Shown here piece after piece: positions 9,049 to 43,784 of a stretch of 44,569 nt of DNA (position 1 is its first letter; each line of letters starts with the position of its first letter). The stretch lies in sequence record MT331608. One strand, given 5' to 3'. The notes beneath the pieces were generated by a model. It was not told where the DNA came from. It searched no databases and was given only the letters and a program-made list of their open reading frames with translations. The position numbers and the translations under genes were made by a program. The DNA is from Escherichia phage SECphi4.

Positions 9049-9138
9049 TTTCCAATTCCTCATTTTCACATTTATCGGGGTTATTGGAAGCCACCCCGTT
9101 CGGCTTGGTTGCTAATTTACTTGGTTGCGCCGGAGCGG

Positions 9139-11241: not shown

Positions 11242-11271
11242 TCTAAAAAGAGGCCCGCTAATCTGCGGGCC
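11242..11271 (-). terminator. Rho-independent terminator downstream of the acidic repeat protein gene
   Basis: Perfect 7-bp stem GGCCCGC/GCGGGCC with 6-nt loop followed by a U run on the minus strand. Confidence 0.6.
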
Positions 11272-11279
11272 GGAATATA

Positions 11280-11798
11280 TTAGTCTTCCAGTTCGAAATA
11301 GGTTTCGACGATTTCTTTTAACTCTGTGTGGAAGTCTTCGACGTCGTCGTCTTCCAGCTTGGCGATTGATTTGATCTCGAACGATTCCAGCAGGTCGTCG
11401 AATTCGTCGTTCGCGTCGTCGTCGTCACCACCAGCGATAATAGCGGCGTACTGTTTGATCTCGTCGCGCATCTCTGCCAGCGGGTCGGCATCTTTCTTGC
11501 CTTTGCCTTTCGCCGGAGCTTTTTTGGTTTTCGCCGGTTTTTCGTCTTCGGCTTCTTCATCGTCGTCATCTTCTACGACTTCTTTTTTGGCCTTACCTTT
11601 AGCCGGTGCTTTTTTGGTTTTCGCCGGTGCTTCGTCTTCGGTTTCATCGTCGTCATCTTCTACGACTTCTTTCTTAGCCTTAGACGGCTTCTTGTCTTCC
11701 TGCTTACCCACGGCAGCGCCAACGGTTTCATAATGCTTAGCGATGGTTTCCAGTGCTACTACGCCGCGAGTAATCAGGTTTACGATTTGTTCAAACAT
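11280..11798 (-). CDS. Mixed-charge tandem-repeat protein; first gene of the minus-strand arm
   Basis: ATG at 11796..11798 with GGAGA SD; 173 aa with two roughly 30-aa repeats KKEVVEDDDDE..PAKTKKAPAKGK and an acidic C-terminus. Confidence 0.6.
   Translation of the reverse strand: MFEQIVNLITRGVVALETIAKHYETVGAAVGKQEDKKPSKAKKEVVEDDDDETEDEAPAKTKKAPAKGKAKKEVVEDDDDEEAEDEKPAKTKKAPAKGKGKKDADPLAEMRDEIKQYAAIIAGGDDDDANDEFDDLLESFEIKSIAKLEDDDVEDFHTELKEIVETYFELED
11490..11690. repeat. Tandem 90-bp DNA repeat (2 copies) inside the acidic protein gene
   Basis: Near-identical gccgg(a/t)gcttttttggttttcgccgg...catcgtcgtcatcttctacgacttc units at about 11512 and 11602. Confidence 0.8.
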
Positions 11799-12138
11799 GG
11801 TATATCTCCGATTGGTTAAGTTTAGGTGTCGGCAGTTAACTTCGTCGGTGGCCTTAACATATTGCCAGGTTACGCGTTCTCCCGTTCGGGTAGTGGACCT
11901 GGTTATATAATCACGGTTGGGAATCCTGACACTTCGATCCGGCCCCTGCGTTGCCCCTCTCCAGTTTGCGTCCTGCATCCTGTCGACGAGGTGAATATTA
12001 GATTGGTTGCATGAGGGAGTCAACAACTAATTTAAAAAAAAGCGCCGAAGCAAAATGCGACGGCGCTAACCAATAAGAGACAATGAGACGGGAATTATTA
12101 TTACACGCGTGCGCGCCCGTTTCAATATTCCAGAGGAG

Positions 12139-12167
12139 TTGACACCCTGCGGTTTTAGGTGTAGTTT
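12139..12167 (+). promoter_or_regulatory. Candidate sigma70 promoter for the plus-strand arm (TTGACA-N17-TAGTTT)
   Basis: Perfect -35 hexamer with weak -10, about 35 nt upstream of the ATG at 12199. Confidence 0.3.
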
Positions 12168-12198
12168 CATTGGTCATTAACCAACCGGAGACAGAACA

Positions 12199-12528
12199 AT
12201 GAATATAAACGACGCAATCGAAATGTTAACTAAGACTGTTGGCAGTGAGACTAGCCGGTCCTGGGCCTATACCGATGCCGTGGGGGCTGTATTATTTGAA
12301 ATCGAACGTCTGCGACTTACCGAAAAAGAATTACGCGCGAAGCTGGAATTACTCAACGGTACGGCAGCCAGCAAGCTGCAAAAGCACAATGAGGAAATGG
12401 AAGAATATAAAAAACAGGTTATCCGTTTGCGCGCCGAGGGCAAATCCTGGGCGATGATTGCCGAGTTGACCGGAATTAATCAGAGCACAGTGCGCTCCTG
12501 GGTACGCAATAATAAAACTTCTAAGTAA
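12199..12528 (+). CDS. HTH DNA-binding protein (putative transcriptional regulator)
   Basis: 109 aa; C-terminal SWAMIAELTGINQSTVRSWV helix-turn-helix; GGAG SD. Confidence 0.55.
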   Translation: MNINDAIEMLTKTVGSETSRSWAYTDAVGAVLFEIERLRLTEKELRAKLELLNGTAASKLQKHNEEMEEYKKQVIRLRAEGKSWAMIAELTGINQSTVRSWVRNNKTSK

Positions 12529-12538
12529 GGCCGCGGCA

Positions 12539-14803
12539 ATGAGCTTAATTAAATTCGCTGTAACACGACCCGCTAAAAAAGGCGAAAAAGCCAGGGCGGA
12601 AAACTTCCAGATGACTACCGAAGAGTTTTTCGAATTTATCAATGATGCGAAAGAAATCTCCTCGGTGCATATCAACAAGACGGAAGATAAAGCCGAGTAT
12701 GCTCGCCGCAAGCGTAAGGCCGACGGCATCGTGGCGTATACCCGTGACGGCCTACGCCGCAAGACCAGTGCGGTGGACCGCTCGATCCTGTTCTTCGATA
12801 TCGACCGAACCAACACCCGCACCCTACGCCGCTGCCGTAAGGCGTTCATTGACGCGGGGCTGGAACACGTATTTCACACCACAACCGGCGACCGCCACCC
12901 GCTGAAAGGCGGCACGCGTTGCGCTCGATTCCTGGTACTCACTGACAAGCCTGTACCGGCTGAAGACCTGGGCCGCGTCCAGTATGCGCTATTACACCAA
13001 CTTGGTCTGTCAGATGTGGACTTCGACGATTGCACGAAAGACACAAACCGCCTGATGTACCTGCCACACCAGCAGTCTGTTATTAAGTGCCACTACGGCA
13101 AGCGCGCCCGTGTCCGTCGTCTGCTTCGCCTGGCTGACAAGCTGGGAGTTGAGAAGGAAGAAGTACGCCGCGAACTAACCCAGGGCGATGACGGCGTGGC
13201 GGACGGTATTCTGGATTGGTGCTTCCAGGCGGGATTCGAGGAGTTATCTTCCGGTCGCGGTTATGAAGTGCCGTGCCCGAACGAACATCTGCACAGCGGC
13301 GAAGGGTCGACGGCTATCATGGTCAAGGATGGCGAGATCCGTTTCAAGTGTATGCACACCGGCAACGAGTGTTGCTCGGAACTGAACAGACACCAGCACC
13401 TGGCGCTACGTCTTATTGGTATCCCGGACCACCTGAACGTCGAGCCACACAATATGTCCCGTAAGCAAATCGCCGCCACCCTTCCAGGTCTGGACGACGA
13501 AGAAGTCGAATCCTTATATGAACATATTGTTGATGCGGTCGGAGACGGCGACGAGTACGGCGTATGTACCGACGCTGACCTGGATAACGAACCGGTCGCA
13601 CTGTTCAGTAAGCACGACCCGATCATAGAAGGCCTGGTCAACTTCAAATCGACCTGGTATATGGCGGGTGAGTCGAATATCGGTAAGTCTTTCTACGTGC
13701 TGGGCCAGATGGGCGCGGTTGCCGCCGGTATTCCGTTTGGCGGTGCGAAGGTCGTACAGTCTCATTGCTTCTATTTCGACGCGGAAGGTGGCGAAGCCTC
13801 CAACCAGCGTAAAGAAGCATTGCAGATTAAATACGAGCACGACCTGGACAAGCTGCACATTATAGACCTGCAGTCACGCGGCTGGGATATCACCAGCAAA
13901 TCAGGCTTGCGCGAAGTTATCAGCTTTATCAACCGCACCGCTAACGGCGAACCGGTTGGCCTGGTGGCGTTCGACTCACTCAACCAGACTGTTGCGCTGC
14001 GGTCCGCCGATGCTAAACCGTTTGACGAGAACAACGCCAGCGATATGGGTGAAGTGGTCAAGGCGCTGAAGGCCATCGCGGAAAATACAGGTGGCAGTGC
14101 GGGCGTCATCCACCACCCGGCTAAAGGTGCAAACGGCAGCAGAACCCCACGCGGGTCCGGCGCGCTGCATGGTGCTGTCGATTCTGCGTTCTTCCTGGAA
14201 CAGCCGGACGACAACCAGCCCGGACAATTGAACCTGTATCATGAGAAGTCACGTAACGGCATCAAGCAAGCGCCGCGCGGCTTCGTCCTGCTCAAGTGCA
14301 AGGTGAAGGTGGATCTCCGCAAGTCAGAAGCGTTCGAGGCGCACCAGTCCAACAGCACCGGGCCAGACTTCGGCGATGTGGTTGCCGGATGGGACATCAA
14401 GCCGATTGCCTCCACGCCACGCGACGAGACTCTCTACCTCGTACCGGTTGCCCTGGCACCATTCGCTATTGAACAGGCGAAGGCGGCGGGCAAGGCCGCG
14501 GTTAAGGAAGAGAACACCGCCGGACCGCGCAACGAAAAAGAGAAAGTGCTTTATGCGGCACTGGAAAAACTGATGGAAGATAACCCGGACCATACTGGAT
14601 TCAGTAAATCGGCAATCGTCCGCCAGGCGGGACTCGCGAAAGGTGGAACTTCGACGAAGGCAATCGACGATATGGTGGCGCGCGGCGTGCTCGGTTTTTA
14701 TACAGACCCGCACACTGGGGCCATCTACGGGTCGTCGAATATCGTCATCAAAACGAACATACCCATCACGCTTTCGGCGACCGATGACGATTTAAAAGAT
14801 TAA
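12539..14803 (+). CDS. Primase-helicase (N-terminal primase-like domain, C-terminal RecA/DnaB-like ATPase)
   Basis: 754 aa; Walker A GESNIGKS in the C-terminal half. Confidence 0.7.
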   Translation: MSLIKFAVTRPAKKGEKARAENFQMTTEEFFEFINDAKEISSVHINKTEDKAEYARRKRKADGIVAYTRDGLRRKTSAVDRSILFFDIDRTNTRTLRRCRKAFIDAGLEHVFHTTTGDRHPLKGGTRCARFLVLTDKPVPAEDLGRVQYALLHQLGLSDVDFDDCTKDTNRLMYLPHQQSVIKCHYGKRARVRRLLRLADKLGVEKEEVRRELTQGDDGVADGILDWCFQAGFEELSSGRGYEVPCPNEHLHSGEGSTAIMVKDGEIRFKCMHTGNECCSELNRHQHLALRLIGIPDHLNVEPHNMSRKQIAATLPGLDDEEVESLYEHIVDAVGDGDEYGVCTDADLDNEPVALFSKHDPIIEGLVNFKSTWYMAGESNIGKSFYVLGQMGAVAAGIPFGGAKVVQSHCFYFDAEGGEASNQRKEALQIKYEHDLDKLHIIDLQSRGWDITSKSGLREVISFINRTANGEPVGLVAFDSLNQTVALRSADAKPFDENNASDMGEVVKALKAIAENTGGSAGVIHHPAKGANGSRTPRGSGALHGAVDSAFFLEQPDDNQPGQLNLYHEKSRNGIKQAPRGFVLLKCKVKVDLRKSEAFEAHQSNSTGPDFGDVVAGWDIKPIASTPRDETLYLVPVALAPFAIEQAKAAGKAAVKEENTAGPRNEKEKVLYAALEKLMEDNPDHTGFSKSAIVRQAGLAKGGTSTKAIDDMVARGVLGFYTDPHTGAIYGSSNIVIKTNIPITLSATDDDLKD

Positions 14804-14884
14804 ATTCTGCGCGCATTGGTTGCCGTTTTGAGTGTTTTTATCCGGTCGTATTGGTTGCCGTGTAGTGTAAATATAATGAATAGT

Positions 14885-15071
14885 TATGCAATAAAACTGC
14901 ATAAAGTAAGCGGGACAAAAAGCGGGACAAACAAGAGGCGGGACAAAGCGGGACAGCACCCCCGTCCCGCCCCGGATGACGCGGCCTGGATAGGAGCGGG
15001 ACAGGCGGGACAAACCCCAGTCTTTCAGACTAGACGGGGGTCAATGGCCCCCCTCGTCTGAGACTGAATAA
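14885..15071. repeat. Iteron element copy A: six or more GCGGGACA direct repeats plus a conserved imperfect palindrome
   Basis: Near-identical to 31562..31740, including a 55-bp identical block cccagtctttcagactagacgggggtcaatggcccccctcgtctgagactgaataa. Confidence 0.85.
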
Positions 15072-15226
15072 AATCCGGGGATTGCAAAATACACGGCAGC
15101 ATAATGCGAAGTGCGGTCGCGGATGAACTAGGCAACCAATGCGATTTGCATTATGCGAAGTGAAAAATGCAGTTTGCAGTTGCAGCAGATAGCGATCAAC
15201 TTTTTCATGCGCGTGATTAATATTGG

Positions 15227-15255
15227 TTGCATTCAACCCGGCGCCTTGCTATATT
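15227..15255 (+). promoter_or_regulatory. Sigma70-like promoter (TTGCAT-N17-TATATT) with ATTGGTTGCA copies at 15222 and 15253
   Basis: Same architecture as the minus-strand promoters; 21-bp block tatattggttgcacaccaaca is shared with the promoter at 25833. Confidence 0.5.
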
Positions 15256-15282
15256 GGTTGCACACCAACATGAGGGCGGAAC

Positions 15283-18556: not shown

Positions 18557-18619
18557 TTGCTTGACTCGCAACCAACATAGAGGCCATACTGCAACCAATC
18601 AACGAGAGGAGTAATCAAG

Positions 18620-25802: not shown

Positions 25803-25832
25803 TTTTGTGTCCTCGTTGTTGGTGTGCAACCA

Positions 25833-41916: not shown

Positions 41917-41945
41917 AGTATCGCACTGCTTAACCATTAATGCAA
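41917..41945 (-). promoter_or_regulatory. Candidate promoter (TTGCAT-N17-GATACT) with an ATTGGTTGCA copy
   Basis: Motif at 41941..41950 on the complementary strand, upstream of the lipoprotein gene. Confidence 0.35.
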
Positions 41946-41966
41946 CCAATTTATGAGGATTTAGCA

Positions 41967-43784
41967 ATGGCGGCGGGAACATTATCCGTAACGAATAACA
42001 GCAAGACAGTTGTAGGGGTTGGCACGACGTTCACCGCGTTTAAAGCTGGCGACTTCTTAACTCTGGTGGTGGGGCAAGTGCCTTACACTGTTGCGATCGC
42101 GTCCGTAGAAAGCGACACCGCGCTTACGCTGGTGCTGCCGTTCGACGGCCCAACGGCAGCAGGCCTTGCGTGGGATGGCGTTAAGCGCGATACCATGTCG
42201 CTGGCAACGATGGGCGTAACAGTACAGGCACAGAAAGCGTTGCGCTTGATGCTCGCGGACGAAAACAACTGGCGTGCGATATTCGGAGACGAAGAAGAAA
42301 TCACGGTAACGCTGCCGAACGGGCAAGTAATGCAGGGTATGTCGTGGGGCTATCTGTCGCAATTGATGAAGGAAATAGACCCCGTTGAGATGCGCAACCT
42401 GCAACAAAAAACCCGCGAGTCTGAGTTAGCCACGTGGCATTATCGGCAGGAGGTCGAAGGCTTTAAGAACGACACCAATTCCATCAAGGACCAGACAAAC
42501 CAGATTAAGGAGGATACGCAGGCTATCCACGACGCCACCAATGCCATCAAGGACCAGACAAACCAGATTAAGGCTGACACCGGCGTTATTCGCGACGAGG
42601 CCAATGCCGCGAATGCTGAAGCGCAAGCCGCCAGCACTGCCGCGCAGGGATTTCGCGATCAGGCCGAAGAATTGGTGCAAAGCATAAACCCCGACAATCT
42701 GCTAACCAAATCCGGCAACCTGGCGGGCCTGGCTGACCGCGCCGCTTCATGGCTTAATATTCGCCCGATTGGACCTACTCCGCTCGCTGGCGATCCTGTT
42801 GACGATTATGACGCCACCACGAAGCGTTGGGTGCAGAATACGCTAAACTCTGGCGTAATCGGACAAAGCTGGGGTGTTAAGAACGTAAATGTTAGCACCC
42901 CAGAGCCAGGCGTTAACGTCAGTGGCGGAATGTTGGTGTCTGAATACTCCAACCCGGAACGCAGTCTTTTTGCTCGCCTATACTCGAACACTGTATGGGG
43001 TTATCCTGGAGCGGCTATTATTGAGGCGGAAGGTAGTAACAAGCACACATACCAGTTTTTTGAAGACGGCACTGTTGATTTCAGGAAATCCGGTAATTCA
43101 AACCGAGTCAGCATGCACACATCCACCTCAAGTTGGTATAACGTCACAACGGCGTCACGCACCGACTTGACATCAGGTGGGGTTGACAGAATTCTGGAAG
43201 CAGAGGCGTCGGATATTTTAGTACTGGGGTACACTATTGGTGCGTCACGTCCTGACGGCTACCCAACAAAAGTAGGCTTTCATCAATATATTTGGCCTAC
43301 GGAATCATACAACTTCGCTTCAGCGGTAATCTCAATTGGTGCGGACAATGGTTGGTGTAAATTCCTTTTTGGTGTGGACGGGGTGATCTGGGGGTCTACA
43401 GATCAAGGTGATTTTTCCTACACCCGTAACGGTGTGTCCGACTCGCGTGTTAAGCACGGCATAGAGCCAACAACCGTTGATAAGGCGTGGAGTAACTTGA
43501 CATCCCTACAGTTTGTAACGTTTGTTTATAATAACGATGAGCAGGAGCGCCAGCGACGTGGCATTATCGCGCAGCAAGCAGAGACTGTAGATAAGCTATA
43601 TGTAAAAACAAGGGTTTATCCTGGTAAAAATACAGGGGACTCTATGGTTGAACAGAAGGAACTGGATACTATGCCATTGCTTCTTGACACCATGCATGTT
43701 GTGCAAACGCTGATGCTGAAGATCGAGGCGATGGAAGCAGAGATTGCCACCCTTAGAGAAGAAGTGGCGGAGTTGAAGAAATAA
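41967..43784 (+). CDS. Side tail fibre with coiled-coil repeats and probable C-terminal intramolecular chaperone domain
   Basis: 605 aa; tandem 21-aa repeats (T-N-x-I-K-D-Q-T-N-Q-I-K); C-terminal SDSRVK...GIIAQ motifs resemble the S74-type chaperone domain. Confidence 0.7.
   Translation: MAAGTLSVTNNSKTVVGVGTTFTAFKAGDFLTLVVGQVPYTVAIASVESDTALTLVLPFDGPTAAGLAWDGVKRDTMSLATMGVTVQAQKALRLMLADENNWRAIFGDEEEITVTLPNGQVMQGMSWGYLSQLMKEIDPVEMRNLQQKTRESELATWHYRQEVEGFKNDTNSIKDQTNQIKEDTQAIHDATNAIKDQTNQIKADTGVIRDEANAANAEAQAASTAAQGFRDQAEELVQSINPDNLLTKSGNLAGLADRAASWLNIRPIGPTPLAGDPVDDYDATTKRWVQNTLNSGVIGQSWGVKNVNVSTPEPGVNVSGGMLVSEYSNPERSLFARLYSNTVWGYPGAAIIEAEGSNKHTYQFFEDGTVDFRKSGNSNRVSMHTSTSSWYNVTTASRTDLTSGGVDRILEAEASDILVLGYTIGASRPDGYPTKVGFHQYIWPTESYNFASAVISIGADNGWCKFLFGVDGVIWGSTDQGDFSYTRNGVSDSRVKHGIEPTTVDKAWSNLTSLQFVTFVYNNDEQERQRRGIIAQQAETVDKLYVKTRVYPGKNTGDSMVEQKELDTMPLLLDTMHVVQTLMLKIEAMEAEIATLREEVAELKK
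42471..42590. repeat. Tandem 63-bp repeat inside the fibre gene
   Basis: Repeated aat(t/g)ccatcaaggaccagacaaaccagattaagg at about 42477 and 42540. Confidence 0.8.

Follow-up and report, generated by a model that had tools for sequence, protein, structure and literature searches.

Predicted divergent early promoters, operator-like sites and two unannotated RNA candidates between the gene arms of the Dhillonvirus SECphi4

The genes of Escherichia phage SECphi4 (sequence record MT331608; all 44,569 nucleotides were analysed and are called the window) depart leftward and rightward from a 400-bp gap at 11799-12198, which raises the question of how the two arms are controlled. The first leftward gene, L1, and the first rightward gene, R1, are preceded by almost the same 15-mer, and a preliminary description of the gap saw in this shared leader a sign that both arms are co-regulated. 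Our analysis favours, with a probability of roughly 55%, a compact early control region of a virulent Dhillonvirus with three predicted sigma-70 units and with operator sites that would be bound by the R1 protein. Comparative analysis also points to two unannotated RNA candidates in the gap, a terminated RNA of about 56 nt and a 169-nt structured RNA that is common to several phage genera. Feature coordinates are collected in Table 1.

By sequence the source genome is a Dhillonvirus. Positions 11300-12700 (1.4 kb compared) are about 94% identical to more than 130 Dhillonvirus genomes, including those of EP23, GeorgBuechner and Gluttony. In the collinear annotated genome of Gluttony the leftward arm consists of replication and recombination genes (nuclease, DNA polymerase, helicase and methylase). 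The rightward arm starts with a 109-aa protein, continues with the primase/helicase and runs onward to the lysis and structural genes. No integrase or CI-like gene was seen in the phage genome. The gap is the apparent junction of the two early arms of a virulent siphophage, and a predicted two-way early promoter region.

The conservation of the region was expressed as the fraction of variable columns per segment in an alignment of 15 distinct Dhillonvirus versions. The resulting footprint is the pattern expected from a set of promoters and RNA genes. Near-consensus -35 and -10 hexamers separated by 17 nt are found at three positions, designated PL, Ps and PR, and these hexamers have 0-14% variable columns as compared to 29-46% in spacers and gaps. 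The presence of invariant hexamers on both strands beside highly variable spacers bears out the description of the gap as a divergent control region. In the relatives of SECphi4 the -35 element of PL is conserved and its -10 element reads TAATAT, TATTAT or TATCAT, with A2 and T6 always kept. Ps is placed back to back with PR and has an extended -10 element. The perfect TTGACA of PR, which had been noticed before, is invariant in relatives, as is the PR -10 hexamer TAGTTT; in CHD5UKE2 the same position reads TAGTAT. The PR hexamers were read by eye and match the consensus at 6/6 and 3/6 positions, with a predicted start around 12172-12176. A promoter scan gave four sites, with 1.6 expected, and the two minus-strand sites are PL and Ps.

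The minus-strand hairpin with U8 that had been noticed before lies between PL and Ps and is present as well, with 12042-12047 paired to 12061-12066 and the U-run at 12041-12034. It has the properties of an intrinsic terminator, namely a GC stem-loop directly before a U-run and compensatory stem changes. The stem occurs in three variants and is always paired: GCGCCG/CGGCGC in SECphi4, TCCCCG/CGGGGA in L015 and LM40P1, and TCCCCAG/CTGGGGA in L018. The A-run beside the stem is kept in all relatives compared.

The predicted promoters are associated with a dispersed motif. The full motif GCAACCAAT occurs 16 times in the window against 0.54 expected, almost always in intergenic gaps and often as pairs 14-35 nt apart or as palindromes. 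TTGGT-N5-ACCAA palindromes were found only at 12170, 15254 and 25819, while about 0.1 would be expected. The motif is retained in the PL spacer even in the divergent L018/L082 lineage, and the L018 spacer has two copies. In Gluttony 15 of the 21 GCAACCAA sites are intergenic, though intergenic DNA makes up 8.2% of the genome, and the left-arm sites are located 55-73 nt upstream of start codons. A recurrent layout, consisting of a -35 element TTGAC(T/C), 7-9 nt, GCAACCAA and then a -10 element, appears at three places: at PL, and around 9121 and 18568, where another copy is located at about +1. In each arm roughly half of the sites are antisense, which fits a DNA site and not an RNA site. A repeated site that overlaps core promoters next to a gene for a helix-turn-helix (HTH) protein is the arrangement of a lambda-type module.

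The near-identical 15-mers upstream of the two first genes are present as described and differ at one base (14/15). Allowing at most one mismatch, 89 kb (both strands) contain exactly two matches, where 0.01 would be expected and none of 100 shuffles reaches two. Chance occurrence at other start sites can be set aside, as the 15-mer is found only at the two first genes; the sole other local near-copy is a third one at 12066-12080. Across relatives the right copy consists of an invariant TTAACCAAC followed by CGGAGA, TGAGGG, CGGGGA, TGGGGG or AGGAGA, and L018 has the canonical GCAACCAAT at the position homologous to TTAACCAAC. Because the right Shine-Dalgarno (SD) half varies so freely, the 14/15 identity is specific to this lineage. 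The left copy, about 170 nt downstream of the predicted leftward promoter, is nearly invariant among Dhillonviruses; the most divergent lineage has TTAACTAAACGGAGA instead. In the most divergent relative, whose right palindrome persists, this copy has decayed to TTAACTAAA. The 15-mer is best described, on these alignments, as a composite of the AACCAA core of the dispersed promoter-associated site family and an ordinary SD. The conserved right half is an arm of the palindrome over the predicted rightward start, which points to a DNA operator and not to an mRNA element. Of the suggested co-regulation by a shared leader, the presence of the AACCAA core of an over-represented motif in both leaders therefore stands, whereas a single common leader unit does not, as 77% of the columns in the right SD half are variable.

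These observations bear on two other explanations for the 15-mer. It could be an mRNA leader element in its own right, recognised by an RNA-binding protein or serving as a ribosome-recruitment enhancer, that provides common translation control of both first genes in the manner of the T7 gene 10 leader with its epsilon enhancer and SD; TTAACCAA, apart from the SD, would then matter for expression of L1 and R1. The pair cannot well be due to chance and occurs at the two first genes only, the copies are similarly spaced from the start codon (6 and 7 nt), and the most divergent lineage retains TTAAC.AA..GGAGAC on both sides. The left leader GGAGATATACCATG also resembles the ribosome-binding site of T7 gene 10 and pET vectors, UUAAC being the beginning of the gene 10 epsilon enhancer (UUAACUUUA). 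In many relatives, however, the right copy (for example TTAACCAACTGAGGG) agrees with the left one at only about 10 of 15 positions. Moreover, its conserved half is continued on the upstream side by a palindrome, most of which precedes or covers the predicted start and would thus be outside the mRNA, and sites with the same core occur on both strands relative to transcription. We consider such translational control unlikely.

The other explanation assumes no shared function and regards the similarity as the remnant of a ribosome-binding cassette that was duplicated or recombined long ago, together with the unstructured A/C-rich linker found in many phage leaders. Other genera indeed have ACCAA, AACCAAC or a similar A/C-rich tail between the 169-nt structured RNA and unrelated genes, as in sortkaff (CAACCAACCGAGAG) and Lumpael (CAACCAACCAGAGG), and the left AACCAA has decayed in L015 and LM40P1. 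A mere remnant is difficult to reconcile with the right TTAACCAAC, which is invariant amid varying neighbours and forms one of the only three such palindromes in the window, and with the presence of three of the window's six TAACCAA copies inside the 400 bp. We find this explanation doubtful.

The likely candidate for binding the AACCAA motif is, from sequence considerations, R1. The protein matches the Pfam families HTH_23, HTH_28 and Sigma70_r4_2, each above the cut-off. Its AlphaFold2 model, calculated from the single sequence, shows long helices followed by a three-helix HTH and has a pLDDT (predicted local distance difference test score) of 73 overall and about 90 in the HTH. A fold search with this model gave no significant global match and only local HTH matches, in which the domain superposes on the HTHs of LuxR/GerE, resolvases and IstA. 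In CHD5UKE2 the HTH is kept at 47% identity and the N-terminus is replaced. The names given to the 109-aa protein in GenBank vary (Gam, transposase, resolvase), which is due to its HTH.

The favoured control region would operate as follows. Transcription from PR would begin about 25 nt before R1, at a start covered by the TTGGT-N5-ACCAA palindrome. Ps would give the leftward RNA of about 56 nt, stopped at the hairpin with U8. PL, with the GCAACCAAT site in its spacer, would give the 169-nt structured leader RNA and then L1, up to the terminator at 11252-11271. Most probably, R1, as an early product of PR, would bind these sites as a dimer and so shut PR (autoregulation), PL and other early promoters of the same build. 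If the arms are co-regulated, this most likely acts at the promoter operators predicted at 12002-12010 and 12170-12184 and not through a common mRNA leader.

Several points weigh against this reading. R1 is connected to the sites only by adjacency and its HTH, and its family is confined to the genus. No link between R1 and the motif could be made via distant homologues; one 38%-identical relative occurs in an AT-rich phage that lacks the motif. CHD5UKE2 keeps the HTH and the PL motif yet has no PR palindrome. The sites directly upstream of -10 elements could mark activated promoters instead. The -10 element of PR is weak, falls below the threshold of the promoter scan and was not called. The left 15-mer has half a site only and is remote from all predicted promoters, and the operator model leaves its near-invariance unexplained; the whole stretch 11796-11830 is as conserved as the 15-mer within it. 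In the literature searched we found no transcript mapping, binding data or transcription-signal map for Dhillonviruses.

The candidate RNA of about 56 nt is defined by Ps and the terminator. Small coding sequences (CDSs) in some records are excluded here because a 1-nt indel occurs between the Ps -10 element and the predicted start. Such an RNA might serve as an antisense regulator in trans, pairing with the 15-mer in both leaders, occluding the SDs and co-repressing both first genes. It carries UCUCUUAUUGGUUAG, the complement of the third 15-mer copy, and this sequence, antisense to the leaders, lies inside the promoter-terminator unit; about 0.01 copies with up to three mismatches would be expected per 400 bp (scaled). 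The body of the RNA is invariant in relatives and its U-rich 3' end is of the Hfq-binding kind. It also contains CAUUGUCUC, a perfect complement of GAGACAAUG, which is located at the second leftward gene's start codon. This 9-mer has only two copies in the window, but two copies also appear in 3 of 100 shuffles, which makes the pair weak evidence. The duplexes predicted with the leaders are unremarkable, at -18.3 (left) and -21.2 kcal/mol (right) against a genome-wide mean of -13.5 (standard deviation 3.9) and a best non-self value of -29. Among 57 start regions the left leader ranks 12th and the right one 5th, with a tail-fibre gene as the top target. Furthermore, complementarity is not preserved among relatives, since the right SD half is free to vary, unlike the invariant RNA; it could be a by-product of a DNA operator copy within the RNA gene. 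The outstanding and evolutionarily maintained complementarity to two leaders that marks a base-pairing small RNA is lacking, and we regard co-repression by antisense pairing as improbable.

The best predicted partner of the small RNA among these start regions, 41931-41990 on the plus strand, surrounds the tail-fibre gene start at 41967 and pairs with -29.1 kcal/mol. This leader has GCAACCAAT 4 nt upstream of its SD.

The second RNA candidate, a 169-nt structured leader RNA, fills most of the distance from PL to L1, and the predicted PL start (about 11988-11987) is the first base of its closing stem P1. This stem is formed by the 5' and 3' ends, and the other parts are a P2 hairpin with an AGGA(U/C) loop, a GA-rich internal loop, P3, a near-invariant P4 arm and a long P5a/b/c arm that is mostly GNRA-capped. 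A covariance model built on a hand-drawn structure found 11821-11989 (minus strand) as the sole copy in the window with 152.6 bits (E 4e-37), and 28 full-length copies elsewhere. In the covariance-model alignment, which was itself fitted to the model, 94.5% of the cells are paired and compensatory changes occur in 19 of 44 pairs. The covariation score of 0.340 compares to at most 0.063 for slid controls and was reached by none of 500 shuffles. Helix swaps (CCAGGT/ACCTGG, CCTGGT/ACCAGG, CATGAT/ATCATG, CATTGG/CCAATG and CGCAC/GTGCG) are visible in a raw MAFFT alignment of 16 diverse copies too. The RNA is assigned to the minus strand because the invariant G-U pairs fit that strand only. The left leader showed no signal when folded as a single sequence (z +0.8 and +1.8), and the structure was revealed only by comparative analysis; RNAalifold on the raw MAFFT alignment recovered a partial structure only, with the variable helices misaligned. 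At the gathering threshold Rfam 15 has no match in the whole window, and at E ≤ 10 both RNAs give only terminator-driven noise. On this comparative evidence, the 169-nt RNA is a well-supported new structured RNA family.

The RNA is a presence/absence polymorphism. According to BLAST, the segment 11831-11980 is absent from some Dhillonviruses and present in other genera; about one quarter of the Dhillonviruses lack the RNA. Of those in the BASEL collection, KarlBarth, for example, carries the module and Haito_Bas83 does not. Its position is taken by a 14-bp mini-hairpin in L007, L009 and L011 and by an unrelated short sequence in the divergent L015. All 19 lineages compared have a -10-like hexamer whose end is 4-7 nt upstream of the model start, and in all 14 loci examined an SD and start codon lie within about 16-48 nt of the conserved CGACGAAG block. 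The proteins encoded downstream belong to at least eight unrelated families. Several lineages have a terminator 60-100 nt upstream, which indicates that the module opens a transcription unit. The module was found in 171 of 50,697 phage records, all of them enterobacterial siphophages by genome type (Dhillonvirus, Drexlerviridae, Sortsnevirus, Murrayvirus and unclassified phages), and was absent from the 5,426 E. coli genomes and 72,556 plasmids searched. Three pattern hits in bacterial genome contigs comprise two chance matches and one full copy on a 42.7-kb contig that is probably a phage.

In other genera (L002, L021, L061, L019 and L062) the sequence between P1 and the SD of the unrelated genes usually begins with ACCA, ACCU or AACCAAC. 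This tail recalls both the AACCAA of the left leader in SECphi4 and a tRNA-like acceptor end.

With respect to function, we rank a cis-acting 5' untranslated region (UTR) device for stability or expression first because the 5' end is buried in P1, followed by a processed decoy acting in trans, an antiterminator and a riboswitch. In cis the RNA could influence how early transcripts are handled by RNA polymerase, the ribosome or RNases. In trans it could act as a decoy that draws off a host factor or a defence system; the two AGGA(U/C) motifs, both invariant, are similar to hairpins bound by CsrA. A riboswitch is unlikely since the SD is left free, the downstream proteins are unrelated and the module is not followed by a terminator. 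The terminator after L1 is present whether or not a phage has the module. The 169-nt RNA may represent a new class of structured non-coding RNA, namely a cassette between a promoter and a ribosome-binding site that would spread horizontally among virulent enterobacterial siphophages and do a job independent of the downstream gene, with the RNA of about 56 nt as a second, genus-specific regulator. We propose this combination tentatively, at clearly less than even odds.

Table 1. Positions of genes, predicted signals and repeated sites in the window; the last column gives the percentage of variable columns in the Dhillonvirus alignment
Feature	Position	Strand	Description	Variable columns (%)
Terminator after L1	11271-11252	minus	Strong intrinsic; GGCCCGCAGATTAGCGGGCC and T-run; abuts SD of next leftward gene; kept in all relatives	
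L1, first leftward gene	11280-11798	minus	172-aa acidic protein; phrog_3127 (unknown function)	
L1 coding segment	11500-11795			43
L1 start and leader	11796-11830			9
Left 15-mer	11805-11819	minus	TTAACCAATCGGAGA; ends 6 nt before ATG 11798; SD GGAG at 11809-11806	
169-nt structured leader RNA	11821-11989	minus	Variable cassette at 11831-11980	
RNA cassette	11831-11980			9
PL region	11981-12025			20
Predicted PL	11995-12023	minus	TTGACT (12023-12018), 17-nt spacer, TAATAT (12000-11995); 9/12 hexamer matches	
Motif in PL spacer	12010-12002	minus	GCAACCAAT	
Intrinsic terminator	12034-12067	minus	6-7 bp GC stem GCGCCG/CGGCGC and U8; ΔG -16.2 kcal/mol, z -3.1	
Terminator segment	12034-12066			6
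Candidate small RNA, ~56 nt	~12089 to 12034	minus	GUCUCAUUGUCUCUUAUUGGUUA, then terminator; predicted from promoter and terminator	
Third 15-mer copy	12066-12080	plus	CTAACCAATAAGAGA; 3 mismatches; inside small-RNA gene; invariant in relatives	
Small-RNA body (5' part)	12067-12089			0
Ps -10 to predicted start	12090-12096		7 nt	43
Predicted Ps (small RNA)	12097-12125	minus	TTGAAA (12125-12120), 17-nt spacer, TGT-AATAAT (hexamer 12102-12097); 10/12 hexamer matches plus TG	14
Between both -35 elements	12126-12138			46
Predicted PR	12139-12167	plus	TTGACA (12139-12144), 17-nt spacer, TAGTTT (12162-12167)	
PR -35	12139-12144			0
PR spacer	12145-12161			29
PR -10 through operator	12162-12185			8
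Candidate operator palindrome	12170-12184	plus	TTGGT-CATTA-ACCAA; over predicted PR start; right arm is first half of right 15-mer	
Right 15-mer	12177-12191	plus	TTAACCAACCGGAGA; ends 7 nt before ATG 12199; SD GGAG at 12187-12190	
Right SD stretch	12186-12198		Most variable segment of the region	77
R1, first rightward gene	12199-12528	plus	109-aa helical protein, C-terminal HTH; precedes primase/helicase gene	34 (coding)
Dispersed GCAACCAAT family	488-508, 2392-2417, 5351, 9105-9128, 14815-14858, 15132			
Dispersed GCAACCAAT family, further sites	15222-15261, 15983, 18568-18599, 25826-25848, 36474, 41942			

The gap is not the largest intergenic region, as had been stated, since 14804-15282 is bigger (479 bp), contains no open reading frame (ORF) with an ATG start and is unannotated in Gluttony. 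This region, downstream of the primase/helicase gene, has five GCAACCAAT copies, four of which are on the minus strand. It may be a second control region, perhaps with leftward promoters.

Some other candidates in the gap were rejected. A minus-strand frame is open across 11799-12026 (whole frame 11280-12026) and is annotated in some GenBank records. Relatives have 1-nt indels and the 150-bp presence/absence polymorphism in it, which rules out a coding role, and the small ORFs at 11998-12177 (minus) and 12083-12142 (plus) were dismissed as genes on the same grounds. The perfect TATAAT at 11906-11911 has no -35 element as a plus-strand promoter, is unconserved in other genera and is a by-product of helix P5a. 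A search for tRNA and tmRNA genes found none.

L1 has no Pfam match. Its sequence includes two 29-aa repeats (KKEVVEDDDDE...KKAPAKGK), encoded by a tandem 87-bp repeat at about 11490-11670, which are acidic and lysine-rich. KarlBarth L1 has one repeat unit fewer and a length of 142 instead of 172 aa. The inner hairpin of the terminator after L1 is reverse-complemented in some relatives, with CTAATCTG instead of CAGATTAG.

Several CDS and product names for the region in GenBank are artefacts. Examples are a CDS extended over the structured RNA and a 48-aa CDS over the small-RNA gene (L001 KarlBarth gp49 and gp50; PHROG 9366). Other records of Dhillonvirus or T1-like coliphage sequence carry non-enterobacterial host labels: MG065648 (Campylobacter phage A144) is 96% and OQ221563 (Acinetobacter phage NJ01) 99% identical to the window, ON843697 (Pseudomonas phage Motto) is classed under Drexlerviridae, and L042, a contig of a Cereibacter metagenome-assembled genome, has a full copy of the RNA module. 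The labels in these four cases are likely to result from misassigned hosts or from contamination.

Dhillonviruses and T1-like phages are among the commonest coliphage isolates and are used in the BASEL collection, in defence-system screens and in phage engineering. The analysis provides a testable map of their early switch, comprising three promoters, a terminator, an operator family and a candidate regulator, all of them predicted. The structured RNA is absent from Rfam, and its function is open to a direct test by swapping because otherwise near-identical phages occur naturally in versions that have it or lack it.

In comparison with known systems, the left leader is partly reminiscent of that of T7 gene 10 in having UUAAC and then, within a few bases, GGAGAUAUAC and the start codon. 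Of the 9 epsilon bases, however, only 5 match, and the remainder is the AACCAA core. The 169-nt module resembles the put RNAs of HK022, antiterminator RNAs that act in cis immediately downstream of early promoters, in being promoter-proximal, in having a fixed orientation, in its independence of which gene lies downstream and in the presence of a terminator downstream. However, put RNAs are about 70 nt long, which makes the module more than twice as long, and the covariance model finds nothing in the HK022 genome at E ≤ 10, so that the module is not homologous to put. Phages without the module keep the same downstream terminator. The c4 RNA of P1 and P7 and the CI RNA of P4 are regulators that are processed from the leader of the operon under their control. 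Like the module, they are structured, begin an early transcript and are closed by a stem of their 5' and 3' ends. The ACCA-like tail after the module in most lineages recalls RNase P substrates. In contrast to c4 and CI, there is no match to the Rfam C4 family, and the leaders downstream, which differ widely, show no conserved complementarity to the invariant loops.

The candidate small RNA is comparable to lambda OOP and similar RNAs, which are short and have their own promoter and intrinsic terminator within an early regulatory region, but it is not antisense to any gene and no relationship by sequence or Rfam was found. The whole arrangement has a close counterpart in the divergent PL/PR region of lambdoid phages, which contains operators and has Cro or CI encoded beside it. 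Unlike these phages, the phage described here is virulent, and its sites are spread over about ten intergenic regions instead of being clustered as in OL and OR. The HTH, known here from sequence and model, is of the LuxR/resolvase type with a long helical N-terminus and differs in this from Cro and CI. The SECphi4 region belongs to a known type of element, the divergent early control region beside an HTH gene, which had been undescribed in the Dhillonvirus lineage. As in the lambdoid regions, sigma-70-type promoters for two arms are placed back to back, an operator-like site is repeated in or over the core promoters, and a small HTH protein comes first in one arm with such a site over its own start point.

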